DNA of 64,000 nt. Origin: a virus. The translations under genes and the position numbers were made by a program. Below are positions 16,940 to 28,067 of the stretch, piece after piece. The stretch's first letter is position 1. Every line of letters starts with the position of its first letter. The notes beneath the pieces were generated by a model that was not told where the DNA came from, did no database searches, and was given only the letters and a program-made list of their open reading frames with translations. Location of the stretch: IMG/VR virus record IMGVR_UViG_3300048033_000857, positions 19,338-83,337 of that record; one strand, 5' to 3'.

Positions 16940-17403
16940 TACTAGTTTGACTTCATACATATATAAGACTCTTTAATAAAGTGTATGCACAGTGCGGTCA
17001 GCTAGTCTGCTGAGTGTATATAGCGTATAACGCATATCTGTTGACATGTGTTCAAACTGTGATGCGCACTGTGCATACACTATTACTTATATTAGAGCTA
17101 GCGTGGTTCCACAGTTAAGAGGTTCTGTTTTACATACACTAGAGCTAAAGCTCTAACACGCTACGCTAGTTCGCTTGCGTGTGTTTGCTTCGCTTTACTG
17201 TGTAGCGTAAGTTAGGTCCGAAATGGGTCCTGCAGGGTAAAAATTTTGCTGCGCAGTTTTTTTAGGTGAAGTACTTACAGAAGTGGGGTGGTGATTTTGC
17301 CTCTGTACGTTTTTAAATCATTAAGCGCAGCTAAGTTGTTGTTTTTAAAAGTCTTTTATACCCCACCGTACCCCCGACGCCTCGAGAAAAATTTTTTTTT
17401 TTG

Positions 17404-17441
17404 AAAAAGAAAAAAGACAAGTGTTGCCACTTGCCTTTCTC
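17404..17441 (-). terminator. probable intrinsic terminator ending the leftward early region
   Basis: GAAAAAGACAAGTG-TTGC-CACTTGCCTTTCTC hairpin with U-tract on the minus strand. Confidence 0.5.
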
Positions 17442-17484
17442 TTACATGCAGATCTGAGCCTGCCGTCTACACTCTTATTGTTCT

Positions 17485-17829
17485 CTAGTCTAGTCTGCTA
17501 CCTGCGTAGGCTTTGTCAAAGCCATACTTCTTAAGCACATCAGCTGCTGCTCTAGCACCTGCTTCTAGTGTGTCCACGTTCTGTGTAGGATACTTACTAG
17601 GGTTCCATATCTGGTAAGCGCCGTTGTAGGCTTTGTTAATACCTGCTTGTTTCATAGCACGACCCAACTTGGTGTTGCCTTTAATGCCGAAGATGTCTAC
17701 CCAAGCAAAGCCACAAGCACCCCAGCCACCATTGGGGAAGTGTGTGTTCTCAAAAGCATCAGCTGCTTCATATGCTGCTTCAGTTGCTTCACGTAGTGCT
17801 TGCTTGATTGTGTTTACTGTAATGTCCAT
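17485..17829 (-). CDS. early hypothetical protein
   Basis: CGFAWV motif; own promoter and GAGGGC RBS. Confidence 0.8.
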   Translation of the reverse strand: MDITVNTIKQALREATEAAYEAADAFENTHFPNGGWGACGFAWVDIFGIKGNTKLGRAMKQAGINKAYNGAYQIWNPSKYPTQNVDTLEAGARAAADVLKKYGFDKAYAGSRLD

Positions 17830-17884
17830 AGTGTTTAGCCCTCTTGCTATGTTTAACTTACTCTATTAGTATAGCATCTATATG

Positions 17885-18064
17885 CTATGTGTCAACCCCT
17901 AATGGCTCTGCTTCAACACTTGCTTCTGCCATTTCAAACATTGCATACAGCATGTCAATGCACTTGGCTTCGTTCTTCATGCTCAATGGCAGCTCACGGA
18001 TCAGTTCTTCTACTGTGTCTAGTGTTGTGTCCAATTGCTCAAGTGTGTGTGCTACAGTCTTCAT
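17885..18064 (-). CDS. small early hypothetical protein (59 aa)
   Basis: MKTVAHTLEQLDTTLDTVEELIRELPL..., AAGGAG RBS. Confidence 0.65.
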   Translation of the reverse strand: MKTVAHTLEQLDTTLDTVEELIRELPLSMKNEAKCIDMLYAMFEMAEASVEAEPLGVDT

Positions 18065-18074
18065 AGTGTTCTCC

Positions 18075-18350
18075 TTAGTACAGTTCGTATACAGTTGGTG
18101 CGTTTAGATTGTTTGCGTTACAGTATGCTTCAAGCTCACGGCATACTGTAGCTAGGAAGCGATACTTGCGCTGTGCTTCTGCGTTAGATATCTCTCCATC
18201 ACAGTGCAAGTTCTCTGGCGATAGTTTGCTGTCCAGTGTACGTGCCAAGTCATTCACTTGAGTCTGGCTCAGTGGAAATGTCATTGGAGCTGTGTTGAAG
18301 AATGCGATCCAACGGTTGTTGTCATCGATGAAGTTCTTTAGGTTTTGCAT
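18075..18350 (-). CDS. early hypothetical protein
   Basis: LSPENLHCDGEIS motif; promoter plus GAGGGC. Confidence 0.8.
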   Translation of the reverse strand: MQNLKNFIDDNNRWIAFFNTAPMTFPLSQTQVNDLARTLDSKLSPENLHCDGEISNAEAQRKYRFLATVCRELEAYCNANNLNAPTVYELY

Positions 18351-18433
18351 GTGTTTGCCCTCTATTGCTTAACTGTTATATACAGTATATGATCAATTAG
18401 AGGATATGTCAACCCCTAATTGCAAAAAAGATC

Positions 18434-18625
18434 AAAAAAAAGCCCTAGCATTGGACGAGGGCACATCCTGCTAGGGCTTAGTCTAGGAAGCAGAGCGTGA
18501 GGGCATACGCTGTTCCACTACCTTAGTTACCTTGCAGCTCTAATGGGCTGCTTCGGTGTACACACACTCGGACGAGGGCTGTCCTCCTGTGTGTTCGAAC
18601 TAGCACGAGGGCACATGCTAGTTCT
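18434..18625 (-). ncRNA. putative multi-hairpin sRNA with four GCCCUC loops, ending in an intrinsic terminator
   Basis: Stem-loops 18440-18479, 18486-18516, 18560-18594 and 18597-18624, each with GAGGGC (plus) / GCCCUC (minus) in the loop; A8 at 18434-18441 gives a U-tract on the minus strand. Confidence 0.7.
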
Positions 18626-18640
18626 ACAGTATGCGGAGCT

Positions 18641-19642
18641 CTATGCTCGACGCATCACTGTATTCTCTGCCATTGCTTCCCACTTGGTAGGGAACGCTTC
18701 GGCTAAGTCTGCTACCTTGAGCACTGTACGCAAGCTCAGTTCGCGCAGACGATTTTTATTAATATCTACAAAGTCCATGATGTCCTCTTTGACTTCATCA
18801 TCAATCTTGCGATCGTCTAACATACCATCCGACACCACTTGCTTGATGCGCAGTACTTTGTCCTTGTCCGTATCGATAGTCAAGTCCATGTAGTGGCAAC
18901 GGCTCTCTAGCGCACTCAAGTGCTCACGCAGTTTGCCTTTGACTTTGTCGAACTTCAAGTTGGTAATGAAGATCGCACTTGCTTCGAACTTAAACTTGTC
19001 CGGCACACCTTCGTTGCGCAATTTGAAGCTGTCGGTGTTCCAATGGATCCAACGATTCTTCTTTGAGTCTAGTGCTGCTTTCAAAATATTAAGGCTTAGA
19101 TCATCTTGGAAGATGCTGTCACAGTCATCGAACACAACAACCTTGCCTTTGTCTGCCATGTTAAACAGTTTGCAGTAGAGTCCAATTGGGCTCATCGCAC
19201 CTTTGATCACTTCGTGTGTCTTGCCTGCACCCAGTGTCTCCATCATAGCATAGCGTTCTAGTACTTCTTCTACACCGTGGCTCTTGCCTACACCCGGAGG
19301 GCCGCTAACGATCATTGCTCGAACGCTGCCTTTCTTGACGGCTTTGGTCATATCTTTGAGCATGTCAAACCGTTCGCGGATGCGCTCTACAATCTCAGCG
19401 TCTGACTCTTCGCGTTCGGTTGTCTCGACATTTGCTCCAACCTGCTCGTAACCCTCCGGGCCAGCAACCTTGATCTTGATGTTGCGATCCGGAAACCCAT
19501 TTACTGCCGCGCCGTCGACAGTTACGTAACCTCCTCGAGCTCCTACTTTGAAACCTTCTACTAGTGGAAAGACCATGCCTGTCATGTCTACATCTTTACC
19601 ACGAATCTTATATGTGCCTTCTGTAATTCTAACGTTTGTCAT
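18641..19642 (-). CDS. AAA+ family ATPase (early)
   Basis: GPPGVGKS Walker A, VVVFDDCD Walker B, FITN, ALESRC arginine finger. Confidence 0.85.
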   Translation of the reverse strand: MTNVRITEGTYKIRGKDVDMTGMVFPLVEGFKVGARGGYVTVDGAAVNGFPDRNIKIKVAGPEGYEQVGANVETTEREESDAEIVERIRERFDMLKDMTKAVKKGSVRAMIVSGPPGVGKSHGVEEVLERYAMMETLGAGKTHEVIKGAMSPIGLYCKLFNMADKGKVVVFDDCDSIFQDDLSLNILKAALDSKKNRWIHWNTDSFKLRNEGVPDKFKFEASAIFITNLKFDKVKGKLREHLSALESRCHYMDLTIDTDKDKVLRIKQVVSDGMLDDRKIDDEVKEDIMDFVDINKNRLRELSLRTVLKVADLAEAFPTKWEAMAENTVMRRA

Positions 19643-19681
19643 ATCGCCCTCTTTGTTTCTAACTATACGTATACTATACTA

Positions 19682-19846
19682 TCAGTTTCGAATCCTGTCA
19701 ACCAAAGATTCGTCTGTTTGTTCAACAATTAATTTAGCACCAGAGTTGATTTGGCTGCGAGCAAAGTCACTCAGCTGCTGAGTCTGCTCAGGGAATGTGG
19801 TCATTGCAGCCACACCAATCACGATACCAATTGCTAGTTTGATCAT
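19682..19846 (-). CDS. small membrane-anchored hypothetical protein
   Basis: MIKLAIGIVIGVAAM hydrophobic N-terminus; GGAGG-like RBS. Confidence 0.65.
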   Translation of the reverse strand: MIKLAIGIVIGVAAMTTFPEQTQQLSDFARSQINSGAKLIVEQTDESLVDRIRN

Positions 19847-19847
19847 C

Positions 19848-20189
19848 TTAAAACTCCTCCGGATAACCACGTGTAACTGAGTTACCACGCTTGGGCGACA
19901 CTACCATCACCTGCTCTTTGAGGAAGTCACGATAGTCTGCATCGTCTGGCAGCTTGCTGATCCACTCAGCTTCTGACTGCCACTCTACTGGAAACTCCTT
20001 AGCACCAATGCCATTCTCCATTGCAATTGCTGCAACGAACGCAACAGCATCCTGGATGCGATCCAAGTCCTGGACTAGGTAGTCACTGCCACCCTTCATC
20101 TTCCAGTATGCATTGCCTGAGGAGAACTTACCGTCCTCGCAGTGTGCGCCGTAGTTTTCAAGGAACTGTGTTGTGATTACGAAATTCAT
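19848..20189 (-). CDS. early hypothetical protein
   Basis: TQFLENYGAH...YWKMKGGSDY motif typical of T4-like phage hypotheticals. Confidence 0.75.
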   Translation of the reverse strand: MNFVITTQFLENYGAHCEDGKFSSGNAYWKMKGGSDYLVQDLDRIQDAVAFVAAIAMENGIGAKEFPVEWQSEAEWISKLPDDADYRDFLKEQVMVVSPKRGNSVTRGYPEEF

Positions 20190-20236
20190 TTGCAAACCCT
20201 CTTGCTGTTGCCCTAACTGTTATATACAGTATATGA

Positions 20237-20512
20237 TCACTTGCGCTCGATGTCAACCTTTTTCTGCATGAATTTGGAAATTAATTCCATGTCAGCTTCG
20301 GAGAAGTCGTTGCGGCCTGTGCCAAATGGAGCACCATAATGAGTGAGTGCATTGCCTACATGGCTTAGATCGTTGAGTGTACGCAAGCCGTTATCCGTTA
20401 CACCTTTGAGTCCGTGGATCTTACCGTACTCTTCGGAGAAGTCCATCATCTCGCGTCCAATGGAGATCAGTTTGCGTTCTTGTGCTGTTGCTTCGTAGAA
20501 TGATTGTGCCAT
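20237..20512 (-). CDS. early hypothetical protein
   Basis: MAQSFYE start with GAGGGC RBS; similar to part of 50549-50998. Confidence 0.75.
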   Translation of the reverse strand: MAQSFYEATAQERKLISIGREMMDFSEEYGKIHGLKGVTDNGLRTLNDLSHVGNALTHYGAPFGTGRNDFSEADMELISKFMQKKVDIERK

Positions 20513-20619
20513 GTTTGCCCTCGTTTGTTTAATTGTTATATACAGTATACGCTCACTTAGAACGTTTGTCAACCCCTAATTTGGGAGTCCGCTCCAATCA
20601 TCACATGGATCATCATACA

Positions 20620-20907
20620 TTATGCTGGCTCCTCTTCACCAAAGGTTGCATCATCTAACTCGGCCAACTCTTCTACTTCACGACCTTCTGCGAACAACAA
20701 CAACTCTACAGCCAACATCCGTGCTTGGTGCTTGGTCAACTCTATGTGATTGTGAAAGCCATCTGATGTAGTAGGTTTCTGGAAGCCTCGTGGTTTGCGT
20801 TGAGTTATCTGTATGCAAGTCAATCGATCCTTGCCACCCCAGAAGCGAGTCTGAGTCAATTCGTTCTGTGCTACACAGTCTGGGACGTTTCTTAATTCTG
20901 TTGACAT
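20620..20907 (-). CDS. early hypothetical protein
   Basis: promoter plus GAGGGC RBS. Confidence 0.75.
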   Translation of the reverse strand: MSTELRNVPDCVAQNELTQTRFWGGKDRLTCIQITQRKPRGFQKPTTSDGFHNHIELTKHQARMLAVELLLFAEGREVEELAELDDATFGEEEPA

Positions 20908-20978
20908 TTGGATTGCCCTCCTAATTTCTAACTATACATACAGTATATGATCTAAAGTTGAGTTTGTCAACCCCTAAT

Positions 20979-21176
20979 TTAATCTAAATCACATTCCCAC
21001 ACATCATTGCGGAACTGTGCTCGCAGCGCACCTAGCGGATAGTCTGCGTGTTCGAACAGCATGTAAGGTGCACCATCATAGTCCAACTTGATTGTGTGTA
21101 CAGTGACTTCGTCCATTGGCAACCACTTTGGTGCTTCGATGCTTCCGTTGTATGCTGAGTTGAATACTTTGATCAT
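20979..21176 (-). CDS. early hypothetical protein
   Basis: promoter plus GAGGGC RBS. Confidence 0.7.
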   Translation of the reverse strand: MIKVFNSAYNGSIEAPKWLPMDEVTVHTIKLDYDGAPYMLFEHADYPLGALRAQFRNDVWECDLD

Positions 21177-21242
21177 TGGATGCCCTCCATTGCTTCTAAC
21201 TATACATACACTATAGCACAGGATTCTTTACCTGTCAACCGA

Positions 21243-21315
21243 AAAAGTACGGGGAGGAGCAATTAATTCTCCTACGATGAGGGCGGTCGCTTAGAGTATG
21301 CTACCACTCCCCGTA
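21243..21315 (-). ncRNA. putative small structured RNA downstream of the tRNA cluster, with one GCCCUC loop
   Basis: 9-bp closing stem TACGGGGAG/CTCCCCGTA, internal hairpins, GAGGGC at 21279-21284, short U-tract. Confidence 0.45.
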
Positions 21316-21318
21316 TTC

Positions 21319-21402
21319 TGGTGCCGCCACCGAGACTCGAACTCGGACGCCATAAGCGAGGGATTTTAAGTCCCTTGTGTCTACCTATTCCACCATGGCG
21401 GC
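21319..21402 (-). tRNA. tRNA-Leu(UAA)
   Basis: GCCGCCA acceptor, GGTGGAATAGGTAGACAC D-arm, AGGGA-CTTAAAA-TCCCT anticodon arm, long variable arm, GTTCGAGT, encoded CCA. Confidence 0.95.
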
Positions 21403-21507
21403 TTATGTCCACGCCAACCCCGGGCAAATCTATTAATAGTCCCAGAGCCTGACAGTCGCTATGTGATCTCCTACCTCAGCGTAATCGGTAAGGAACGCTG
21501 TCGTTGT

Positions 21508-21584
21508 TGGCCTGCCCTGCAGGATTCGAACCTGCGACCCACAGCTTAGAAGGCTGTTGCTCTATCCAGCTGAGCTAAGGGCAG
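21508..21584 (-). tRNA. tRNA-Arg(UCU)
   Basis: CTGCCCT acceptor, TAGCTCAGCTGGATAGAGC, ACAGC-CTTCTAA-GCTGT, GGTTCGAATCC, CCA. Confidence 0.95.
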
Positions 21585-21589
21585 TTATT

Positions 21590-21666
21590 TGGTGGGCCCT
21601 CCGAGACTCGAACTCGGAACCTACGGATTATGAGTCCGGTGCTCTAACCAATTGAGCTAAGAGCCC
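21590..21666 (-). tRNA. tRNA with CAU anticodon (likely Ile2/lysidine type, possibly elongator Met)
   Basis: GGGCTCT acceptor paired at 1-72, CTCATAA loop, GTTCGAGT, ACCA end; lacks initiator features. Confidence 0.88.
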
Positions 21667-21674
21667 TTAGGATC

Positions 21675-21845
21675 TTACGATCCTGAAAAAGCAAACTCCT
21701 CTTGTATATCAGATTCAAACTGAGCAACCTTTTGCTCTGCTTCTTCGATCATGCCTAGCAAGATAACATCTGCTAGGTCTGTGTTGTTGTGTATAATGCG
21801 GCGAACGCCTTCAAGTCTTTCGATCAGTTGTAGTTGGTCTACCAT
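21675..21845 (-). CDS. small early hypothetical protein (56 aa)
   Basis: MVDQLQLIERLEGVRRIIHNN..., GAGGGA RBS and promoter. Confidence 0.65.
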   Translation of the reverse strand: MVDQLQLIERLEGVRRIIHNNTDLADVILLGMIEEAEQKVAQFESDIQEEFAFSGS

Positions 21846-21914
21846 TCTGTTTCCCTCTTCGTTTCAACTTATATACAGTATGCACTCGAAAGCGCATACT
21901 GTCAACCATTATTT

Positions 21915-22397
21915 TTAGATATCGTAGCCTTGTGCCTTCAAGCGAGCCACTTCAAGTGTTACCTGAGTCTCCAAGTCGTCGAAGATTGGAAAGCCGTTTG
22001 CATCGTTGCCTACGTTATAACGATCGTGTACAATCCAACCTGCTGCGGTGTGCAGGTAAAAGTATTCGCATCCGCTGTCTGTGTAGTATTCAACCATCTC
22101 CTGCACAGTGTCAAACTCTTGTGCGTCTACACGAGTCTCGCCACGGTCACGTCCGTAAAATACAGTAACGCCTTCTTCCGGAGTGTCAAAGCTGTGTCCG
22201 CTGCCTGGCATTGGAAAAATTTCTTCTGCCATGTAGCTCTGATCGCCTAGCTCTACCATCTGCGCAATCTTGCGAGCCTGTTGGTAGTGCTCTTGCAGCG
22301 TACGGCCTGCGCCTACTACATAGCCATCATAGTGTGAATATTTTGCACGGATCTTGCCTTCTGGTGTTTTGTAACCAATTGCAGCTCTAGTTCCCAT
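21915..22397 (-). CDS. early hypothetical protein
   Basis: MGTRAAIG...YSHYDGY...CEYFYL motif common in phage early proteins. Confidence 0.8.
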   Translation of the reverse strand: MGTRAAIGYKTPEGKIRAKYSHYDGYVVGAGRTLQEHYQQARKIAQMVELGDQSYMAEEIFPMPGSGHSFDTPEEGVTVFYGRDRGETRVDAQEFDTVQEMVEYYTDSGCEYFYLHTAAGWIVHDRYNVGNDANGFPIFDDLETQVTLEVARLKAQGYDI

Positions 22398-22443
22398 TGT
22401 AGTACCCTCTTTGCTAATTTATATATACACTATAACACAGCTC

Positions 22444-22653
22444 TTAGACTGTGTCAACCTCTTTTTCATACATTTCTACAGTTTCTTCAAACTGCTCTGC
22501 AAGCGAACGCAAGCTCATCATCGCAAACTCTTCTGTGATGCTGCCCGCTTCTGCTTCGTCTAGTGTCCGGATGCGTTCTGCCATCATCTCTGCGATTGCT
22601 TTATAGCTGCCACATTCACGTGCTGTCTTCATGCTGTGATCAATAAATGTCAT
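22444..22653 (-). CDS. early hypothetical protein
   Basis: promoter plus GAGGGC. Confidence 0.7.
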   Translation of the reverse strand: MTFIDHSMKTARECGSYKAIAEMMAERIRTLDEAEAGSITEEFAMMSLRSLAEQFEETVEMYEKEVDTV

Positions 22654-22716
22654 TGTGTTGCCCTCTTTGCTAATTTATATATACAGTATATGATCTAACT
22701 GCGGGGTTGTCAACCC

Positions 22717-22995
22717 CTAATTTGCATATTCACGATTCTTTTTGAGCTGCCACTTCTCTAGCACAGGCAAGCCAAACTCGTCCTCGTCTACGCAGACATA
22801 TGCCACAGTCTTCTTGACAATACCGTAACGGTAGCCTCGCATGCCGCACACGCCTTCGCCGCCTACCCAAACCTTGTGTGGGAAGTCTTCGCACATGCTG
22901 ATCGGATCGTCGTTGACACTATACTCGAAATAGTTGCCGGTGTCCCGCTCTACGAAACAACCTATTGGATCTTTGGTGTGTGTCCAGTATGCCAT
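22717..22995 (-). CDS. early hypothetical protein
   Basis: 92-aa ORF coupled to the upstream small ORF. Confidence 0.7.
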   Translation of the reverse strand: MAYWTHTKDPIGCFVERDTGNYFEYSVNDDPISMCEDFPHKVWVGGEGVCGMRGYRYGIVKKTVAYVCVDEDEFGLPVLEKWQLKKNREYAN

Positions 22996-23102
22996 TACTT
23001 GTGCCCTTTCAACAGTGCGTGAATCAGTTTGGCTTCTTTGCCTTTGATGCGAGGATCTTTTTTGATCGCTTCATCTACTGCTTTCTTGTTGTAAGTTGCC
23101 AT
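22995..23102 (-). CDS. small basic early protein (35 aa)
   Basis: MATYNKKAVDEAIKKDPRIKGKEAKLIHALLKGHK, GAGGGC RBS and promoter. Confidence 0.65.
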   Translation of the reverse strand: MATYNKKAVDEAIKKDPRIKGKEAKLIHALLKGHK

Positions 23103-23159
23103 TGGAGCCCTCCGTTTGCCTAACTGTTAATAATACTATAACACCGAAGGGCTCACTTG

Positions 23160-23333
23160 TCAACCTTTTTCTGCGATTTTTCTTCCGATCATGCTGAGTA
23201 GTAGACTGCGAGCAAGATCAACACGACCACAATCGATCTGACGCAACACTGCTTCAAGACTCTCCTGACTGGTGTCATAGCCACCTGCGTTAGGTTCAAC
23301 TGCCCACAGCATAGGGTTCTCTGGTTTACTCAT
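23160..23333 (-). CDS. small early hypothetical protein
   Basis: MSKPENP start overlapping the upstream gene end. Confidence 0.6.
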   Translation of the reverse strand: MSKPENPMLWAVEPNAGGYDTSQESLEAVLRQIDCGRVDLARSLLLSMIGRKIAEKG

Positions 23334-23871
23334 CTGCCATTTCTTCTTCTTTCCACATCTCGAAGTTCTCAACCAGAGCATACTCTTCGTCTAGGCGATT
23401 AAACAAGTCCGAACGCTCGTCTTCTGGCAGCTCGCATTGCTCTGTGAGGTTGTCGCAGTATTCGTCGCCACCTTCGCTATGCCAAAAGCCTGCAAAGTCC
23501 ATACCAGGCTCGTGATAACTTGCCTGGATGTCACAGTTATCCATATCGTCACAGAACTGCTCGTAAGCACCAATAGGCGGAGCCCATGCACTGTCAAACC
23601 AACCAGTGATCTCGGCTGTTCCGTCTTCGTTGTCGATATACTCCAATCCTTCGTCGGAGACATCCCACTTGGTGCCCCAACTGTTGACTCGCCACGAATA
23701 CCAATCTGGACCGTCTGGGTTAGGAGCAGTTGTGCCTTCTAGCTCTTTAGGCATAGGCGCCATTGCATTGAGTAGACCAAAGTCCTCGCCTACGTGAGCA
23801 TCGTCCCACAGTTGCTTGATGGTCTCAGTTGGACCGGAGATTGTGATTGAGTTGTTGCACCAATTTGGCAT
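23326..23871 (-). CDS. DUF1281/YubB ferredoxin-like family protein
   Basis: MPNWCNN, WYSWRVNSWGTKWD, FDSAWAPP, EPGMDFAG. Confidence 0.8.
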   Translation of the reverse strand: MPNWCNNSITISGPTETIKQLWDDAHVGEDFGLLNAMAPMPKELEGTTAPNPDGPDWYSWRVNSWGTKWDVSDEGLEYIDNEDGTAEITGWFDSAWAPPIGAYEQFCDDMDNCDIQASYHEPGMDFAGFWHSEGGDEYCDNLTEQCELPEDERSDLFNRLDEEYALVENFEMWKEEEMADE

Positions 23872-23885
23872 AGTAGTTCTCCCTC

Positions 23886-24068
23886 TTAGTATTCGTCGAT
23901 TAAAAATGCGTCTTCGTCTTCCTGGAAGCGTTCGGAAAGCTCGTTTGCGTCTAGCATGTCTTCAACTTCGTCTGTTGACATATACTTGAGTGCCATAGTC
24001 AGCATGTCTTCTGCTGATACTAGGCCTTCTTCTACCAATGCTAGTGCTGCGTCTCTTGAATCAAACAT
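23886..24068 (-). CDS. small acidic early protein
   Basis: LKYMSTDEVEDMLDANEL; promoter plus GAGGGC. Confidence 0.75.
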   Translation of the reverse strand: MFDSRDAALALVEEGLVSAEDMLTMALKYMSTDEVEDMLDANELSERFQEDEDAFLIDEY

Positions 24069-24219
24069 ATTGTTGCCCTCTTTTGTTTAACTTATACATA
24101 CACTATAGCACGGGTGTATGCAGTTGTCAACCCCTAAATTAAACTTTTTTAAAGTGTGTTACAGCGGGGCCTGCGGGTGTGCGCACTATAGCACAGTGTG
24201 CGCTATAGTGCAAGTTTTT

Positions 24220-24492
24220 TTAACTTTCGTATTTTACTCCTACTAAGCGCAAATAGCGTCCTCCAAATGTAGTATGCACTTTGTCACATCCTACTAGCAG
24301 CTTTAACCATTTGCAGTCACCTTCTGTAAAACGTTCTCCTACAATACCAAAGCACAAGTTGCGTTTAGCTGCATCCTTAGCATTGTCTTTCCAAACTACG
24401 TTAGTCCAACTGTTCCAAAAACTAGCATTCTTTTCTGCTAGTACAGTTGCAACCAATTTACGTGCTTGTTTAGTGTTTAGTTCATAGCGCAT
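24220..24492 (-). CDS. early hypothetical protein (GA/GG-depleted island)
   Basis: GAGGGC RBS and promoter; no prolines. Confidence 0.75.
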   Translation of the reverse strand: MRYELNTKQARKLVATVLAEKNASFWNSWTNVVWKDNAKDAAKRNLCFGIVGERFTEGDCKWLKLLVGCDKVHTTFGGRYLRLVGVKYES

Positions 24493-24568
24493 ATAAAGCC
24501 CTCCATATGCTGTTACGTTATACAAGCACTATAGCATAAACTACAGTGCTTGTCAAGTGTTTTTTAAA

Positions 24569-24922
24569 TTATGTTTCTAAGCTAGCAACTCCGTCGTCTT
24601 GCATGCCTTGCTCCGTAAATGTTACGTCAAAGCCTAGCGCAACACTTATGCTCTCCTCAAAGCCATCGTCTGTGTATATGCGCCAATCGCCTGTGCCGTT
24701 TGCGTTGTGCTCCACATAAATCATTGTGCTAGTGTCGCCATCCTCATATGTCATCTCATGTACTTCCACAGCACTAACACCTACACGCAAGTCACCTGCA
24801 TATCCCCATATGCTGCTGCCGTTGCACTCCGCAAAGCCGTTTGCGTCCCAACGTGTTACAACACAGCTATAGTCTTCGTCTGCGTGTGTTGTACGTGTTG
24901 TTTTGTTTTTTAATGTAAGCAT
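24569..24922 (-). CDS. acidic early hypothetical protein (GA/GG-depleted island)
   Basis: WRIYTDDGFE...TEQGMQ motif; GAGGGC RBS; no prolines. Confidence 0.78.
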   Translation of the reverse strand: MLTLKNKTTRTTHADEDYSCVVTRWDANGFAECNGSSIWGYAGDLRVGVSAVEVHEMTYEDGDTSTMIYVEHNANGTGDWRIYTDDGFEESISVALGFDVTFTEQGMQDDGVASLET

Positions 24923-25014
24923 AGTTTGCCCTCTTTGCTTTGTTAACTTATACATACACTATAGCACAAGTGTGCGCTGCTGTCAACTAAAAAATGCTAA
25001 CAGCAGCAACTTTT

Positions 25015-25365
25015 TTATGCAGCAAGCGCACTAGTATACTTTGCATAGTTGTTGCGTAGTTTAGCATACTGCGGATAAGCTGCGTCTGCTTGCTGCTGTA
25101 GCTTAAACAATAGCACACTGTTAGCACTAGTGCATGTGTAGTTGGGATAGCTTTTAGCTAAGTGTATAAACTGTTTAGCGGGCACACTTGTTAGCTGCAC
25201 TGTGCTTGCATGCACACGGTAGTCGCTTGCTATGCTTGCGTTAGCAAACAAATACATAGTTACGTTTAGCATGTTAGTGTTTTTGTTTACGCTTTTAACT
25301 AGTGCTAAACGCTGTGTGTTTTTATAGTTTACTAGTACTACGCTGTTACGTTTAATGTTTTGCAT
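25015..25365 (-). CDS. early hypothetical protein lacking Glu, Gly and Trp
   Basis: MQNIKRNSVV..., GAGGGC RBS, TTTACA-type promoter. Confidence 0.7.
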   Translation of the reverse strand: MQNIKRNSVVLVNYKNTQRLALVKSVNKNTNMLNVTMYLFANASIASDYRVHASTVQLTSVPAKQFIHLAKSYPNYTCTSANSVLLFKLQQQADAAYPQYAKLRNNYAKYTSALAA

Positions 25366-25457
25366 ATTATAGCCCTCTATGCTGTTAACGTTATATAAAC
25401 AATATAGCACAAGCAGCGCACTTTGTAAAGTAAAAAATGCGCTGCTGTGTAAGTTTT

Positions 25458-25721
25458 TTATGCTAGTGCTTCAAATGCTTCATCTATTATATTATGCGCA
25501 CTTGCGTCACTTGCAAAGCCCTCTTCTTCTGCAAAATCTATGCTGCTGCTACACATAATAACGTCTGTAAGCACATTAACGTTATGTGTTAAAAACACTT
25601 GCACAAGTGCGTCTGCTGTTTGTACGTCTGTTGCTACAACTGTGTTATTTACAGTTACAACAATTGCAGCGTTGCAAGCGTTTAAAAATACGTTGTTTGT
25701 TTTTGTAGTTGTGTTTTGCAT
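25458..25721 (-). CDS. early hypothetical protein
   Basis: MQNTTTK..., CSSSIDFAEEEGF; same leader as its neighbours. Confidence 0.75.
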   Translation of the reverse strand: MQNTTTKTNNVFLNACNAAIVVTVNNTVVATDVQTADALVQVFLTHNVNVLTDVIMCSSSIDFAEEEGFASDASAHNIIDEAFEALA

Positions 25722-25801
25722 ATTATAGCCCTCTATGCTTGTTAACTTATACATACACTATAGCATTAAAAGTGTAGTTTGTAAAGAGAAAAGTTTTGTT
25801 T

Positions 25802-25843
25802 AAAAACAAGCACTTAGCATTTTTCTTGTAAGTGCTTGTTTTT
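25802..25843. repeat. perfect 15-bp inverted repeat of an IHF-box-like sequence
   Basis: AAAAACAAGCACTTA-12nt-TAAGTGCTTGTTTTT. Confidence 0.8.
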
Positions 25844-25848
25844 GTTAG

Positions 25849-26016
25849 TTAAATTTCCTCTAAGCAGCGTTCTACTGTGTCTACTACAACGTAAGCGTCT
25901 GCTGCTGCGTTAAGCAGTACTAGTGCTTTTTGTGCTTCTTCAAATGTAGCAAAAGCACTAGCAACGCCTGTTGTTAAGTTACAAATAAAGTACGGAAAGT
26001 TTACAACGTTTTGCAT
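25849..26016 (-). CDS. small early hypothetical protein (55 aa)
   Basis: MQNVVNFPYFICNLTTGVASAFATFEEA..., GAGGGT RBS and promoter. Confidence 0.65.
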   Translation of the reverse strand: MQNVVNFPYFICNLTTGVASAFATFEEAQKALVLLNAAADAYVVVDTVERCLEEI

Positions 26017-26161
26017 ATTATACCCTCTATGCTGTTTAAGTTATACATACACTATAGCACAAACGGACACAGCTGTCAACTACTAAATGCATTTAAACGA
26101 ACAAAAGAACCCTTTGTTTTCAATAGGTTAGCACCTAAAGATTCCTAACGATATCAAACGG

Positions 26162-26494
26162 TTACATGCTCCAGTATGTCTCGCTGCTAGGTGACATGTA
26201 GTTGGGTGTGTTAACTGGCTCCATAAACTCTTTGCCACCAAACCCCTCTAGCACACGGCGCAGCACTTTCTTCTCTATAGTAGTGTGGAAATAGTCTGCC
26301 TCTGCTATACCATAACGGAACACAGCATGATTCGGATCAGTCTTCAACAACCCCTCTGCCTTTGCAATTCGAGTGACTGCTGCCTTCGCTGCTGCCATTG
26401 TCTTGTAGCTGCAACGGTGATCCGGACGAGCAATACCTGTGCGATCTGGCTTGCCAATAATGTAGGTTGAAGTCTTTTCATATACGTAGTACAT
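26162..26494 (-). CDS. early hypothetical protein
   Basis: YKTMAAAKAAVTR ... NTPNYMSPSSETYWSM. Confidence 0.78.
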   Translation of the reverse strand: MYYVYEKTSTYIIGKPDRTGIARPDHRCSYKTMAAAKAAVTRIAKAEGLLKTDPNHAVFRYGIAEADYFHTTIEKKVLRRVLEGFGGKEFMEPVNTPNYMSPSSETYWSM

Positions 26495-26542
26495 AGTAGT
26501 GCCCTCTTTGTTTCTAACTTATACATACACTATACAGTCATA

Positions 26543-26710
26543 CTAGCACCTTGTCAACCGATATTTTCGTTTGAGTTCACTAAAATTCCCTCTCACATAC
26601 TCATCGAACGTATACGGCTGAGTCTGACGCCATGCTTCCCATTCATCTCGGTTCTCCCAATACTGAGTCCACAGATAGGCACGAAAAGGTTTCAATTTAA
26701 ATTTATTCAT
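26543..26710 (-). CDS. small early hypothetical protein
   Basis: MNKFKLKPFRAYLW..., GAGGAG RBS, first promoter of the early block. Confidence 0.65.
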   Translation of the reverse strand: MNKFKLKPFRAYLWTQYWENRDEWEAWRQTQPYTFDEYVRGNFSELKRKYRLTRC

Positions 26711-26775
26711 CAGTTTCTCCTCTACACTGTAGTATATATAGTATACAACCAAACGACACCTTTGTCAAGACCACA

Positions 26776-27467
26776 AGCAGCGGGGCCTATAGTATGTTCG
26801 AACTGCTCTATAGTGTATAGTTCATCCTATACACGCACTCGACACTATAAGTCATTGATATCATTACACTATACACTATAGTAGAGTCACAGTGCGTGTA
26901 TAGTGTGTATAGTGTGTATAGTGTGTATATAGAGGCCTCTGGCCGAACGGTAGTAAGTGTTTGAATAATAAGGGAATTATATACACACTCAAAACCGGCC
27001 TACAGCAGCGGGGCCTAGTAGGATCTAGAGTGGATTTATGGTAGAGATGGTTCAGGTTTTGGATGAATTGGTGTGAATAAACCATTGATTTTTATACACT
27101 TTGGTGTACAATAACGCTAGGTTTTTATACACCATCTCGCGGTGACGAGAGGCATAGTTTAAATACTTTTCGACCCATTTCTGTACGTCTAATATCTGTA
27201 TGTTTTTGTACACCCTGTTAGATTATTCACGCATAATGCACACACAACCTAGCAGCGGGGCCTCTACACTAGCATGAGAGTGTGCAGCCACGCTCGCACA
27301 AGTGTCTCACTCTACTATAGTGTATAGTGTGTATAGTGCGCTACTGCTACTACTACTACTACTACTGTAGTCTATAGTGTATAGCGTATATGCGTTAACC
27401 GTAGTGTATAGTTCGAACTCATCTATATACGTGCGCATGTATAGTGTGTGATCTAGCAGCGGGGTCT
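26776..27467 (+). repeat. non-coding repeat block: 4 oriented AGCAGCGGGGCCT copies, TATAGTGTG tandem repeats, (CTA)n run, IHF boxes
   Basis: CAGCGGGG(C/T)CT at 26778, 27006, 27253 and 27457 (a fifth at 24162); (TAGTGTGTA)x3 near 26900; CTACTACTA 27347-27366. Confidence 0.8.
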
Positions 27468-27689
27468 TTATCGATATTTGTCTGCTGGATTATCACACAC
27501 TGTACTATCTGATTGTTCGCACAGTTTAAATGTAAGAGCTTTGCGTGGACCACGGGTTGTGTTTAGTGTGACTTCTCCACTCTTTTCATGAAACTCTATC
27601 TTAGTTATAGTTGCACGATCATTGTTAGGACCTACTAATATCTCTTGTCCTAGCTCTAGATTTAGATTGATAGTTCTCAGTGTTGCCAT
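27468..27689 (-). CDS. hypothetical protein (small beta-barrel-like)
   Basis: AAGGAG RBS; TAAATA motif upstream on the minus strand. Confidence 0.7.
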   Translation of the reverse strand: MATLRTINLNLELGQEILVGPNNDRATITKIEFHEKSGEVTLNTTRGPRKALTFKLCEQSDSTVCDNPADKYR

Positions 27690-27734
27690 GGGAAGTCTCC
27701 TTGTTTACTACTAATATTTATTGACACATTCAGC

Positions 27735-27762
27735 TTGACAATCTAAATCTAGACACTATAAT
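27735..27762 (+). promoter_or_regulatory. sigma70 promoter
   Basis: TTGACA-16nt-TATAAT, then AAGGAG RBS. Confidence 0.7.
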
Positions 27763-27785
27763 AAGTAGTACAAAGGAGTGGATAT

Positions 27786-28067
27786 ATGTATGAATCGATC
27801 AATGATGTTGTAGAGGGCACAAGTGTTGCTTGTAAGTTTCGAGTGGAGACTATGTTGGATACCCTAGGTCGTCCGGCACCAAATCTTTCGGACACGCCCT
27901 TGGCAGGGGTTGGAGTCTATGAGAGCTTGGGCGTTATTATGCAGCGTGATCATGCTCAGGGTGTGGTCAAGCTAGAAGACACAGCAAGCAAACGTCAGTT
28001 TGTTGTGGAGTATGCCAACATATGGGACATCGATGACGTTGAGTGGCAGGACCCATTGGATGGCTAG
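27786..28067 (+). CDS. hypothetical protein
   Basis: 93-aa ORF with AAGGAG RBS. Confidence 0.7.
   Translation: MYESINDVVEGTSVACKFRVETMLDTLGRPAPNLSDTPLAGVGVYESLGVIMQRDHAQGVVKLEDTASKRQFVVEYANIWDIDDVEWQDPLDG

Follow-up and report, generated by a model that had tools for sequence, protein, structure and literature searches.

The stretch analysed here, referred to as the window, comprises 64 kb of the 83,337-bp virus record IMGVR_UViG_3300048033_000857 in IMG/VR. It harbors a block of small leftward genes; nearly every promoter of the block is followed by a leader with a short motif, most often GAGGGC, in front of the start codon, and behind an AAA-ATPase gene of the same block lies a candidate RNA with four hairpin loops presenting the complement of this motif, the tag. 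CheckV rates the record 23 % complete, hence it represents only part of a giant phage genome; contigs related to it have lengths of 237–358 kb. Beyond the early block, the genes of the window include a DnaB-type helicase, a ribonucleotide reductase and structural proteins. Megablast of the block matched tRNAs only and thus revealed no close cultured phage at the DNA level. By protein, the Pseudomonas giant phage PA5oct was the nearest among named phages, with identities of 46 % for the ATPase and 49–54 % for the helicase.

The early block (17410–26768, minus strand) consists of 19 modules of a σ70-type promoter and a leader. Each module has the layout TTGACA, 16–17 nt, TATAGT or TATACT, a conserved leader start (GTATGTATAAGTTA or similar), an A-rich stretch, the tag and ATG, and the distance from the -35 element to ATG is 58–67 nt in the 19 modules. 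A consensus scan of 17400–27400 yielded 35 promoter-like sites, compared to 17.0 ± 4.0 in shuffles. The 16 best sites (11 of 12 matches; TTGACA, 16–17 nt, TATAGT or TATACT) were all on the minus strand, and three further sites with 10 of 12 matches were likewise located at cassette heads. Terminator-like sites were not enriched (8 in the scan, 8.5 expected) and none was directly ahead of any of the 19 promoters. By eye, hairpins with U-runs precede few modules only, e.g., near 25800–25840, and several module promoters reach into the end of the preceding gene. The original prediction, made from the sequence of this DNA, was one of small early genes each with a near-consensus promoter, a leader and a GAGGG-type site, and the modules agree with it, 18 of the 19 being tagged. 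Its one-gene cassettes apply to about 14 modules, since five modules drive two or three genes, and the promoter sequence ATTAGGGGTTGACA, thought to occur often, heads only 5 of 19 modules. In five promoters (17890, 18407, 20567, 20965, 22708) ATTAGGGG adjoins TTGACA on the 5' side and the -10 element is TATACT, not TATAGT; a sixth promoter (24125) bears TTTAGGGG in place of ATTAGGGG. The ATTAGGGG/TATACT promoters are a second promoter subclass of the block.

The tag, NAGGGN located 3–8 nt before ATG, was present in 18 of 19 modules, as GAGGGC (14), GAGGGU (3) or GAGGGA (1). Module 1, with its promoter at 26768, is the sole untagged module and has GAGGAG instead. Among the other called genes of the 83-kb record GAGGG preceded 1 of 92 and AGGGC 2 of 92 (positions -22 to -3); the difference between early and other genes, 18/19 versus 1/92, has a Fisher p of 1.5e-18. 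The minus strand of the whole record contains 19 copies of GAGGGC, 14 of them in the position of an early Shine-Dalgarno (SD) sequence. The SDs of the other genes are AAGGA, GGAG, AGGAG or GAGGA, and promoter-distal genes within the early block have mostly ordinary SDs. The expected restriction of the motif to early genes thus holds, but it had been called invariant and non-canonical, which overstates both points: GAGGGC is exact in 14 of 19 modules, and GAGG, its core, is an SD of the usual kind.

The 3' end of the 16S rRNA was compared with E. coli as a stand-in, from which the phage host may differ. The tail (..CACCUCCUUA) pairs with GAGG only, with a median of -6.3 kcal/mol at early genes versus -5.9 kcal/mol at other genes. 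The following G, C and A have no partner in this tail, which does not explain this part of the tag. GCCCUC is absent from the E. coli 16S rRNA (rrsA), again used as the stand-in. Promoter spacers and the leader stretch from GTTA to the tag vary between modules while the tag is retained, therefore a simple recent duplication fails to account for it.

The features of the block are listed below from module 1 onwards; each module begins with its promoter.

26543–26768, minus: module 1, -35 element at 26768; leader with GAGGAG, no tag; small gene 26543–26710
26162–26557, minus: module 2, tag GAGGGCA (26500–26506); gene 26162–26494
25849–26079, minus: module 3, tag GAGGGTA (ends 26021); gene 25849–26016
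25458–25785, minus: module 4, promoter with TTTACA, tag GAGGGCT; gene 25458–25721
25015–25429, minus: module 5, promoter with TTTACA, tag GAGGGCT; gene 25015–25365
24569–24986, minus: module 6, tag GAGGGCA; gene 24569–24922
24220–24556, minus: module 7, tag GGAGGGCT; gene 24220–24492
23160–24130, minus: module 8, tag GAGGGCA; gene 23886–24068
23326–23871, minus: promoter-distal gene of module 8 with a DUF1281_C domain, SD AGAGGGAG
23160–23381, minus: promoter-distal small open reading frame (ORF) of module 8, start uncertain
22717–23163, minus: module 9, tag GGAGGGCT; ORF of 35 amino acids (aa), 22995–23102
22717–22995, minus: second gene of module 9, SD region containing AAGGGCA
22444–22713, minus: module 10, ATTAGGGGTTGACA promoter, tag GAGGGCA; gene 22444–22653
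21915–22457, minus: module 11, tag GAGGGTA; gene 21915–22397
21675–21905, minus: module 12, tag GAGGGAA; gene 21675–21845; the tRNA cluster is next
21319–21666, minus: tRNA cluster, tRNA-Met(CAU), tRNA-Arg(UCU) and tRNA-Leu(UAA)
21248–21315, minus: second GCCCUC element, terminator-like long stem 3' of tRNA-Leu enclosing a small hairpin with loop CCGCCCUCA
20979–21238, minus: module 13, tag GGAGGGCA; gene 20979–21176
20620–20970, minus: module 14, ATTAGGGGTTGACA promoter, tag GGAGGGCA; gene 20620–20907
20237–20572, minus: module 15, ATTAGGGGTTGACA promoter, tag CGAGGGCA; gene 20237–20512
19682–20256, minus: module 16, two tags, TAGGGCA close to the leader 5' end and GAGGGTT in SD position; gene 19848–20189
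19682–19846, minus: promoter-distal ORF of module 16, SD GGAGGAG
18641–19701, minus: module 17, tag GAGGGCG; AAA-ATPase gene 18641–19642 (phrog_1250)
18434–18640, minus: candidate regulatory RNA, 3' untranslated region (UTR) of the ATPase gene; five hairpins, four with a (U/A)GCCCUC loop, the last a terminator with U8
17885–18412, minus: module 18, ATTAGGGGTTGACA promoter, tag GAGGGCA; gene 18075–18350
17885–18064, minus: promoter-distal gene of module 18, SD AAGGAG
17485–17895, minus: module 19, ATTAGGGGTTGACA promoter, tag GAGGGCT; gene 17485–17829
17410–17441, minus: terminator-like hairpin ending the early block

Candidate hairpin RNA behind the ATPase gene

A motif count on both strands of related loci revealed a clustering of GCCCUC just 3' of the AAA-ATPase gene. 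In the window, this zone of 207 nt has four copies. The fold of 18420–18650 (minus) has a predicted energy of -90.3 kcal/mol (z = -4.95), which was equalled by none of 200 shuffles. It presents five hairpins, four of them with (U/A)GCCCUC in the loop and the last one a terminator with a U8 tail. On the RNA strand of 18434–18640 no ORF of at least 30 aa was found. A scan of 17000–28000 against Rfam 15 (E ≤ 1) returned tRNAs and noise only; the best match on the candidate RNA was suhB/mmgR, with 21.7 bits compared to a gathering score of 41. A fifth GCCCUC loop is part of the terminator-like element directly 3' of tRNA-Leu (21248–21315), and two related loci (L007, L040) have a GCCCUC hairpin 30 nt past their own tRNA cluster. 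The trio of tRNA-Met, tRNA-Arg(UCU) and tRNA-Leu(UAA) is also present in L007, L040, L021 and L038, in varying order. The remaining GCCCTC copies (plus strand 7759, 9559, 52815 and 25518, also 27813) were rejected as elements of this kind, being located in coding-like context and outside hairpin loops.

The predicted loop-tag pairing of 6–8 bp is about twice as strong as that between SD and 16S tail. Across the 18 tagged leaders, the median net energy of loop-tag pairing, opening of both sides included, was -11.35 kcal/mol, compared to -5.55 kcal/mol for the 16S tail. Free loop 12-mers gave a median of -14.5 kcal/mol with early leaders versus -5.8 kcal/mol with other genes.

Tags and loops in related phages

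A protein search with the ATPase yielded 63 loci, here clade A, from which 51 zones behind the ATPase stop codon were examined, 44 of them distinct. GCCCTC occurred 127 times in the distinct zones, compared to 2.4 copies expected from base composition, with one to five copies per zone (most often three; two to five in 41 of 44). Perfect stems of at least 4 bp flanked 71.7 % of the GCCCTC copies, but only 22.2 % of random positions in the same zones, in a test that was free of hairpin selection. The loop word is invariant amid 53 distinct combinations of stem and loop flank, and RNAalifold on 20 terminal hairpins revealed compensatory changes in 8 of 9 pairs. U-G closing pairs were frequent, 46 of 96 at stem position 1 among hairpins preselected for stems of at least 4 bp; this agrees with an RNA of the strand carrying GCCCUC, not with DNA or the opposite strand. 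The mean unpaired probability of the motif bases was 0.86 versus 0.34 elsewhere, with higher values for the motif in all 44 zones.

In the related loci, AGGGC was present in 326 of 423 distinct promoter-anchored leaders (304 once, 22 twice), a density of 24.8 per kb compared to 1.15 per kb on the gene strand overall. A motif-blind enrichment of 6-mers placed AGGGCA and GAGGGC as the top two of the leaders, and in the zones GCCCTC first and TGCCCT third: the two pairs are exact reverse complements. Since the logos read G79-A-G-G-G-C85-A75-A67 for the leader tag and U60-GCCCUC for the loop, the common duplex is GAGGGCA:UGCCCUC. The tag was within the SD window in 297 of 423 leaders and only upstream of it in 29. 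In L030 and L038, TAGGGCAA starts most leaders and an ordinary AAGGAG, AAGGA or GAGGA SD follows 10–15 nt downstream; the tag of L004 and L020, AAGGGCA, lacks GAGG. Judged from these leaders the tag is separable from the SD, and as they keep only AGGGC(A), the retained core is the part matching the loop and not the part matching the ribosome. Variant loops, GCCCUU and GCCCUG, were present in some loci rich in AAGGGC leaders (L004, L020), but inconsistently.

A search with a 16-nt hairpin word identified 14 new contigs. Several loops were present in four of these, each adjoined by the ATPase gene, and 20 of their 25 same-strand leaders bore the tag; the remaining ten contigs had one isolated match each. 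Two clade A loci deviate in structure. In L006 an opposite-strand ORF of 201 codons (L006:2189–2860) has entered the locus precisely where the ATPase gene ends; a second copy of the final ATPase codons follows the insert, and the hairpin array is kept downstream. The insert looks like a mobile, homing-endonuclease-like element. L033 (68 % ATPase identity) uses leaders of another family, which carry a 5' hairpin, GAGCGAACAGCUC, and GGAGA as an ordinary site. The tag is in one of its five leaders and only two CCCUC loops (GCCCUC, CCCCUC) are located 3' of the ATPase gene; this lineage may be losing or changing the system of tag and loops.

A second ATPase search was used to test for a joint change of loop and tag between clades. 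In clade A, AGGGC was in 314 of 415 distinct leaders and GCCCT in 44 of 44 zones. In clade C, with 31 loci and 23 distinct zones, a single hairpin follows the ATPase stop; its stems covary and its loop, CUCCUCUGUCUGCGUCACUCUCACUC, spans 26–28 nt. The ATPase leader of this clade carries GGAGUGAGA(G), an exact complement of 8–9 nt to the loop in 12 of 17 distinct loci; GAGTGAGA was found in 8 of 66 leaders, TCTCACTC and UCUCACUC each in 23 of 23 zones. In clade D (7 loci) the loop is CUCCUCUCUCCUCUCUCCUCC and 13 of 26 leaders have GGAGAGAGA or GAGGAGAGA; GAGAGA is in 13 of 26 leaders and TCTCTC in 6 of 6 zones. The table of tag by loop is near diagonal, all other cells holding 0–3 except for GCCCT in 10 of 23 clade C zones. 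Neither tag nor loops were found in clade B or around the ATPase homologue of PA5oct, nor in further clades in which the next gene starts at the ATPase stop. Eight loci of this last type (L148, L150, L152, L154–L156, L159, L160) have an ATPase leader with GGAGCGAAA; with the next gene right at the ATPase stop, these distant clades lack a hairpin zone there. As far as the sequences of these clades tell, loop and tag change together.

The gene content of the block was compared by tblastn of 24 early ORFs against the related loci. Homologues were patchy: four ORFs had none, the others, the ATPase aside, had them in 1–41 loci, always on the same strand. The order relative to the ATPase gene (Q) differs between loci, from G-H-I-J-K-L-M-N-O-P-Q-R-S-T in the window to E-C-A-K-H-I-L-Q-M-G-R-T in L001 and F-C-B-A-Q-N-K-H-G-L-P-M-O-I-R-T in L012, in line with the recombination-shuffled cassettes that had been proposed. 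Family searches covered 17 early proteins, ten against PHROGs, ten against Pfam and three of them in both, and yielded almost no functions for these genes, which the original prediction regarded as host-takeover or anti-defence modules. The only named families were the AAA ATPase and the DUF1281_C domain (Api92-like, ferredoxin-like; E = 9e-07) of the protein encoded at 23326–23871 (minus), the single Pfam match among ten; four other proteins had matches to PHROG families alone, all without known function, and one of these matches was weak.

Upstream of module 1, the gene-poor region 26776–27400 appears by eye crowded with CACTATA/TATAGTG micro-repeats resembling the early -10 element. It contains several minus-strand copies of GGCCCCGCTG(C), of which one more is located around 24165 (24162–24175), and, also by eye, a run resembling (GTA)n near 27350. 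Over the 1,916 nt of 24178–26093 (minus), the mRNA strand of five early genes is depleted in two dinucleotides, with 6 TC and 8 CC where composition predicts about 90 and 62; the remainder of the block has 271 TC and 196 CC in 6,348 nt.

Interpretation of the complementarity

With a probability of roughly 0.6 for the explanation as a whole, the early block is a regulon read by the host RNA polymerase of a giant phage, its modules travelling with small genes, and the tag is a docking site for a multi-loop RNA borne in a 3' UTR, which would shut off or tune early translation. The GAGG part of the tag would serve as SD core and the rest of (G)AGGGCA as private docking site for the (U)GCCCUC loops. 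These would be presented by a structured RNA of about 200 nt, transcribed as 3' UTR of the early AAA-ATPase gene, with one more such loop behind the tRNA cluster. Pairing would mask the ribosome sites of almost all early mRNAs; upon accumulation of the stable RNA, early translation would be throttled or shut off jointly and the mRNAs possibly exposed to decay. The RNA is probably made and stable and would pair with the leaders in the cell, with repression as the probable effect; the direction of control (repression, tuning or protection) we infer from the position of the tag only. An address for collective translational control, as suggested in the original prediction, thus finds computational support in an RNA with complementary loops that is encoded in the same block and co-occurs with the tag, and in the sister clades with other pairs.

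Several observations weigh against this explanation. The candidate RNA has no promoter of its own and may therefore exist only within the ATPase mRNA; a search for RNA sequencing runs matching 17401–27400 returned none. The regulator belongs to the early class like its targets; to act as a clean off switch, the RNA would have to outlive the mRNAs, which is an assumption, and four to five loops face 18 strongly promoted leaders. The predicted exposure of the tag (0.64) is not greater than that of the remainder of the leader (0.62), and the duplex energies ignore the strain of pairing within a loop of 7–9 nt. Within clade A no locus-by-locus covariation of the base flanking the core was detected (Spearman 0.04, p = 0.81). 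Shuffle controls were weak in the sister clades: in clade C the observed word was reached by at most 5 of 500 shuffles in only 8 of 17 loci, and in clade D, where complexity is low, by 6 to 181 of 500; in both clades the loops are pyrimidine-rich and the leaders purine-rich. As the clades are few, their covariation amounts to about three independent events.

The pairing may be real and yet protect or activate: the RNA could shield tagged sites or 5' ends from a nuclease, be it RegB-like or the host RNase E, or store the mRNAs, and early expression would be prolonged or timed. All evidence for loop-tag pairing applies equally to this alternative, the RNA would be made at the same time as its targets, and in leaders of the L030/L038 type the tag is at the mRNA 5' end, 15–20 nt before an ordinary SD, where pairing could affect 5'-end-dependent decay rather than ribosome binding. 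We consider it unlikely, however, as most tags are in the SD window, in which a duplex of -11 kcal/mol would be expected to compete with 30S binding. RegB (PF10715, REGB_T4) had no match in the 83-kb record, which is about 23 % of the genome, though this family matched none of the control genomes either; the helper proteins Ribosomal_S21 and Hfq were likewise without match in this part of the genome. Slightly less credit is given to an explanation without any link between the RNAs, in which (G)AGGGCA is the inherited leader of a spreading promoter cassette similar to the PeSL cassettes discussed below, perhaps a translation enhancer, and the hairpins are an unrelated 3'-UTR stability element or a protein-binding array. 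The uniform module spacing, the shared promoter and 5'-leader sequence and the lack of covariation at the flanking position agree with it, and because the gene order is shuffled, part of the conservation can be put down to a common descent of the module. Yet the tag is kept where spacers and the GTTA-tag stretch vary and shifts within the leader without being lost. Two independently enriched motifs are exactly complementary (odds of 1 in 4096 per given hexamer), in two sister clades this position is occupied by different loop/tag pairs, and the lineages without the hairpins are also without the tag. Very improbable is a motif at the DNA level, i.e., a phage or host DNA-binding protein that recognises the asymmetric GAGGGC/GCCCTC in either direction, both near +25 of the early promoters, where it would be a roadblock, and in a cluster past the ATPase gene. 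It would account for the same hexamer at both places in the DNA and for the fixed distance from the promoters, but it leaves unexplained the GCCCTC in hairpin loops with covarying stems, the distance of 3–8 nt from tag to ATG and the occurrence of the tag at the transcript 5' end in some leaders and at the SD in others; the U-G closing pairs would be C-A mismatches on the other strand.

Starting from the docking of a 3'-UTR RNA on the tag, a wider picture can be drawn more tentatively, to which we give somewhat less than even odds: a private RNA address code in a widespread group of uncultured giant phages, with lineage-specific tags ((G)AGGGCA, GGAGUGAGA, GGAGAGAGA) and the hairpin RNA in the ATPase 3' UTR as a master timer that turns early genes off and frees ribosomes for later genes. 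In clade C it is mainly the ATPase's own leader that matches the loop, which suggests an origin as self-control between 5' and 3' UTR that spread later; the regulon may have grown from such self-control of the ATPase mRNA as tagged cassettes recombined. The temporal shut-off of early genes is understood in few model phages and is protein-based there (RegB, RegA and Alc of T4). An RNA that addresses a whole promoter class via a private tag would, if true, be a new layer of phage gene control, carried by a group of aquatic giant phages that is abundant and uncultured. Annotators would gain a sequence signature of early genes for metagenomic phage contigs, and synthetic translation control a compact orthogonal pair of tag and anti-tag. 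As loop and tag are short and the compensatory mutations obvious, simple reporters can test the system.

Comparison with known systems

The modules resemble the PeSL cassettes of T4-type phages, which combine a terminator stem-loop and an early promoter between small variable genes, with relatives differing by insertion, loss and reordering of genes between them (PMC4122927, PMC2839356). Common to both are conserved early σ70-type promoters between small variable genes and indels and reordering among relatives. Most modules of the window, however, lack a preceding terminator hairpin, and their conservation runs through the leader to a class-specific tag, a feature not reported for PeSLs in these accounts.

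Some Gram-positive RNAs with C-rich loops carry the motif in a terminator loop. C-rich loops pair with G-rich ribosome-binding sites and block translation in RNAIII and the Rsa RNAs of S. aureus with their UCCC motif (PMC2790875; RNAIII is also treated in PMC4615179), in LhrC of Listeria (PMC4132741) and in 6C of M. tuberculosis (PMC6486639); for icaR, a C-rich motif in the 3' UTR pairs with the 5' UTR (PMC3868564). The short C-rich loop motif complementary to G-rich ribosome-binding sites is shared with the candidate RNA. As described there, those RNAs are cellular and have generic anti-SD seeds and scattered targets, whereas the loops described here are phage-borne, complementary to the tag of nearly a whole promoter class and part of lineage-specific pairs.

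Among phage RNAs, the c4 antisense RNA of phages P1 and P7 has loops that pair around the ribosome-binding site of a phage mRNA, and controls one operon (ant) for the immunity of a temperate phage (PMC12197685). The likeness is a phage-encoded structured RNA with loop pairing at a phage ribosome-binding site; the difference is about 18 targets in an early regulon of lytic type versus one operon. The C4 model of Rfam had no match in the scan of 17000–28000 (E ≤ 1). A phage RNA aimed at a tag common to a whole early regulon was not found in the literature searched, including the 2025 phage small RNA (sRNA) review PMC12197685, with supplements outside the scope of the search.

The closest architecture is that of the cuckoo/CcsR RNAs (RSs0680, alpha-r14), sRNAs of Alphaproteobacteria with two to four adjacent hairpins, a C-rich anti-SD-like loop and compensatory stem variation; in the account available the loop is CCUCCUCCC, a generic anti-SD, and the family is chromosomal and stress-induced with host mRNAs as targets (PMC4615179). 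Adjacent hairpins, one loop motif, variable covarying stems and co-transcription with an upstream gene are common to both. The phage loops, in contrast, read (U/A/C)GCCCUC, the complement of a private tag on the phage's own early genes, and not CCUCCUCCC. CCTCCTCCC is absent from the window, and a search with one mismatch gave a single match, at 21252–21260 in the tRNA-Leu element, and none in 18434–18640; the candidate RNA thus fails the defining loop motif and matches no Rfam model.

In its logic the system is closest to the RegB endoribonuclease of T4, for which the GGAG SD of early leaders and an A-rich stretch are described as the address for the inactivation of early mRNAs; RegB is the product of an early gene, also targets its own mRNA and is helped by ribosomal protein S1 (PMC3014915). 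Both systems have a class-linked early SD motif next to an A-rich stretch and, as proposed for the window, a collective post-transcriptional control by an early-encoded effector. The early SD of the window is (A/G)GAGGGC, and GGAG is present in 3 of 19 modules only, as GGAGGGC. A protein effector acting on GGAG in T4 is paralleled here by a candidate RNA and (G)AGGGCA.

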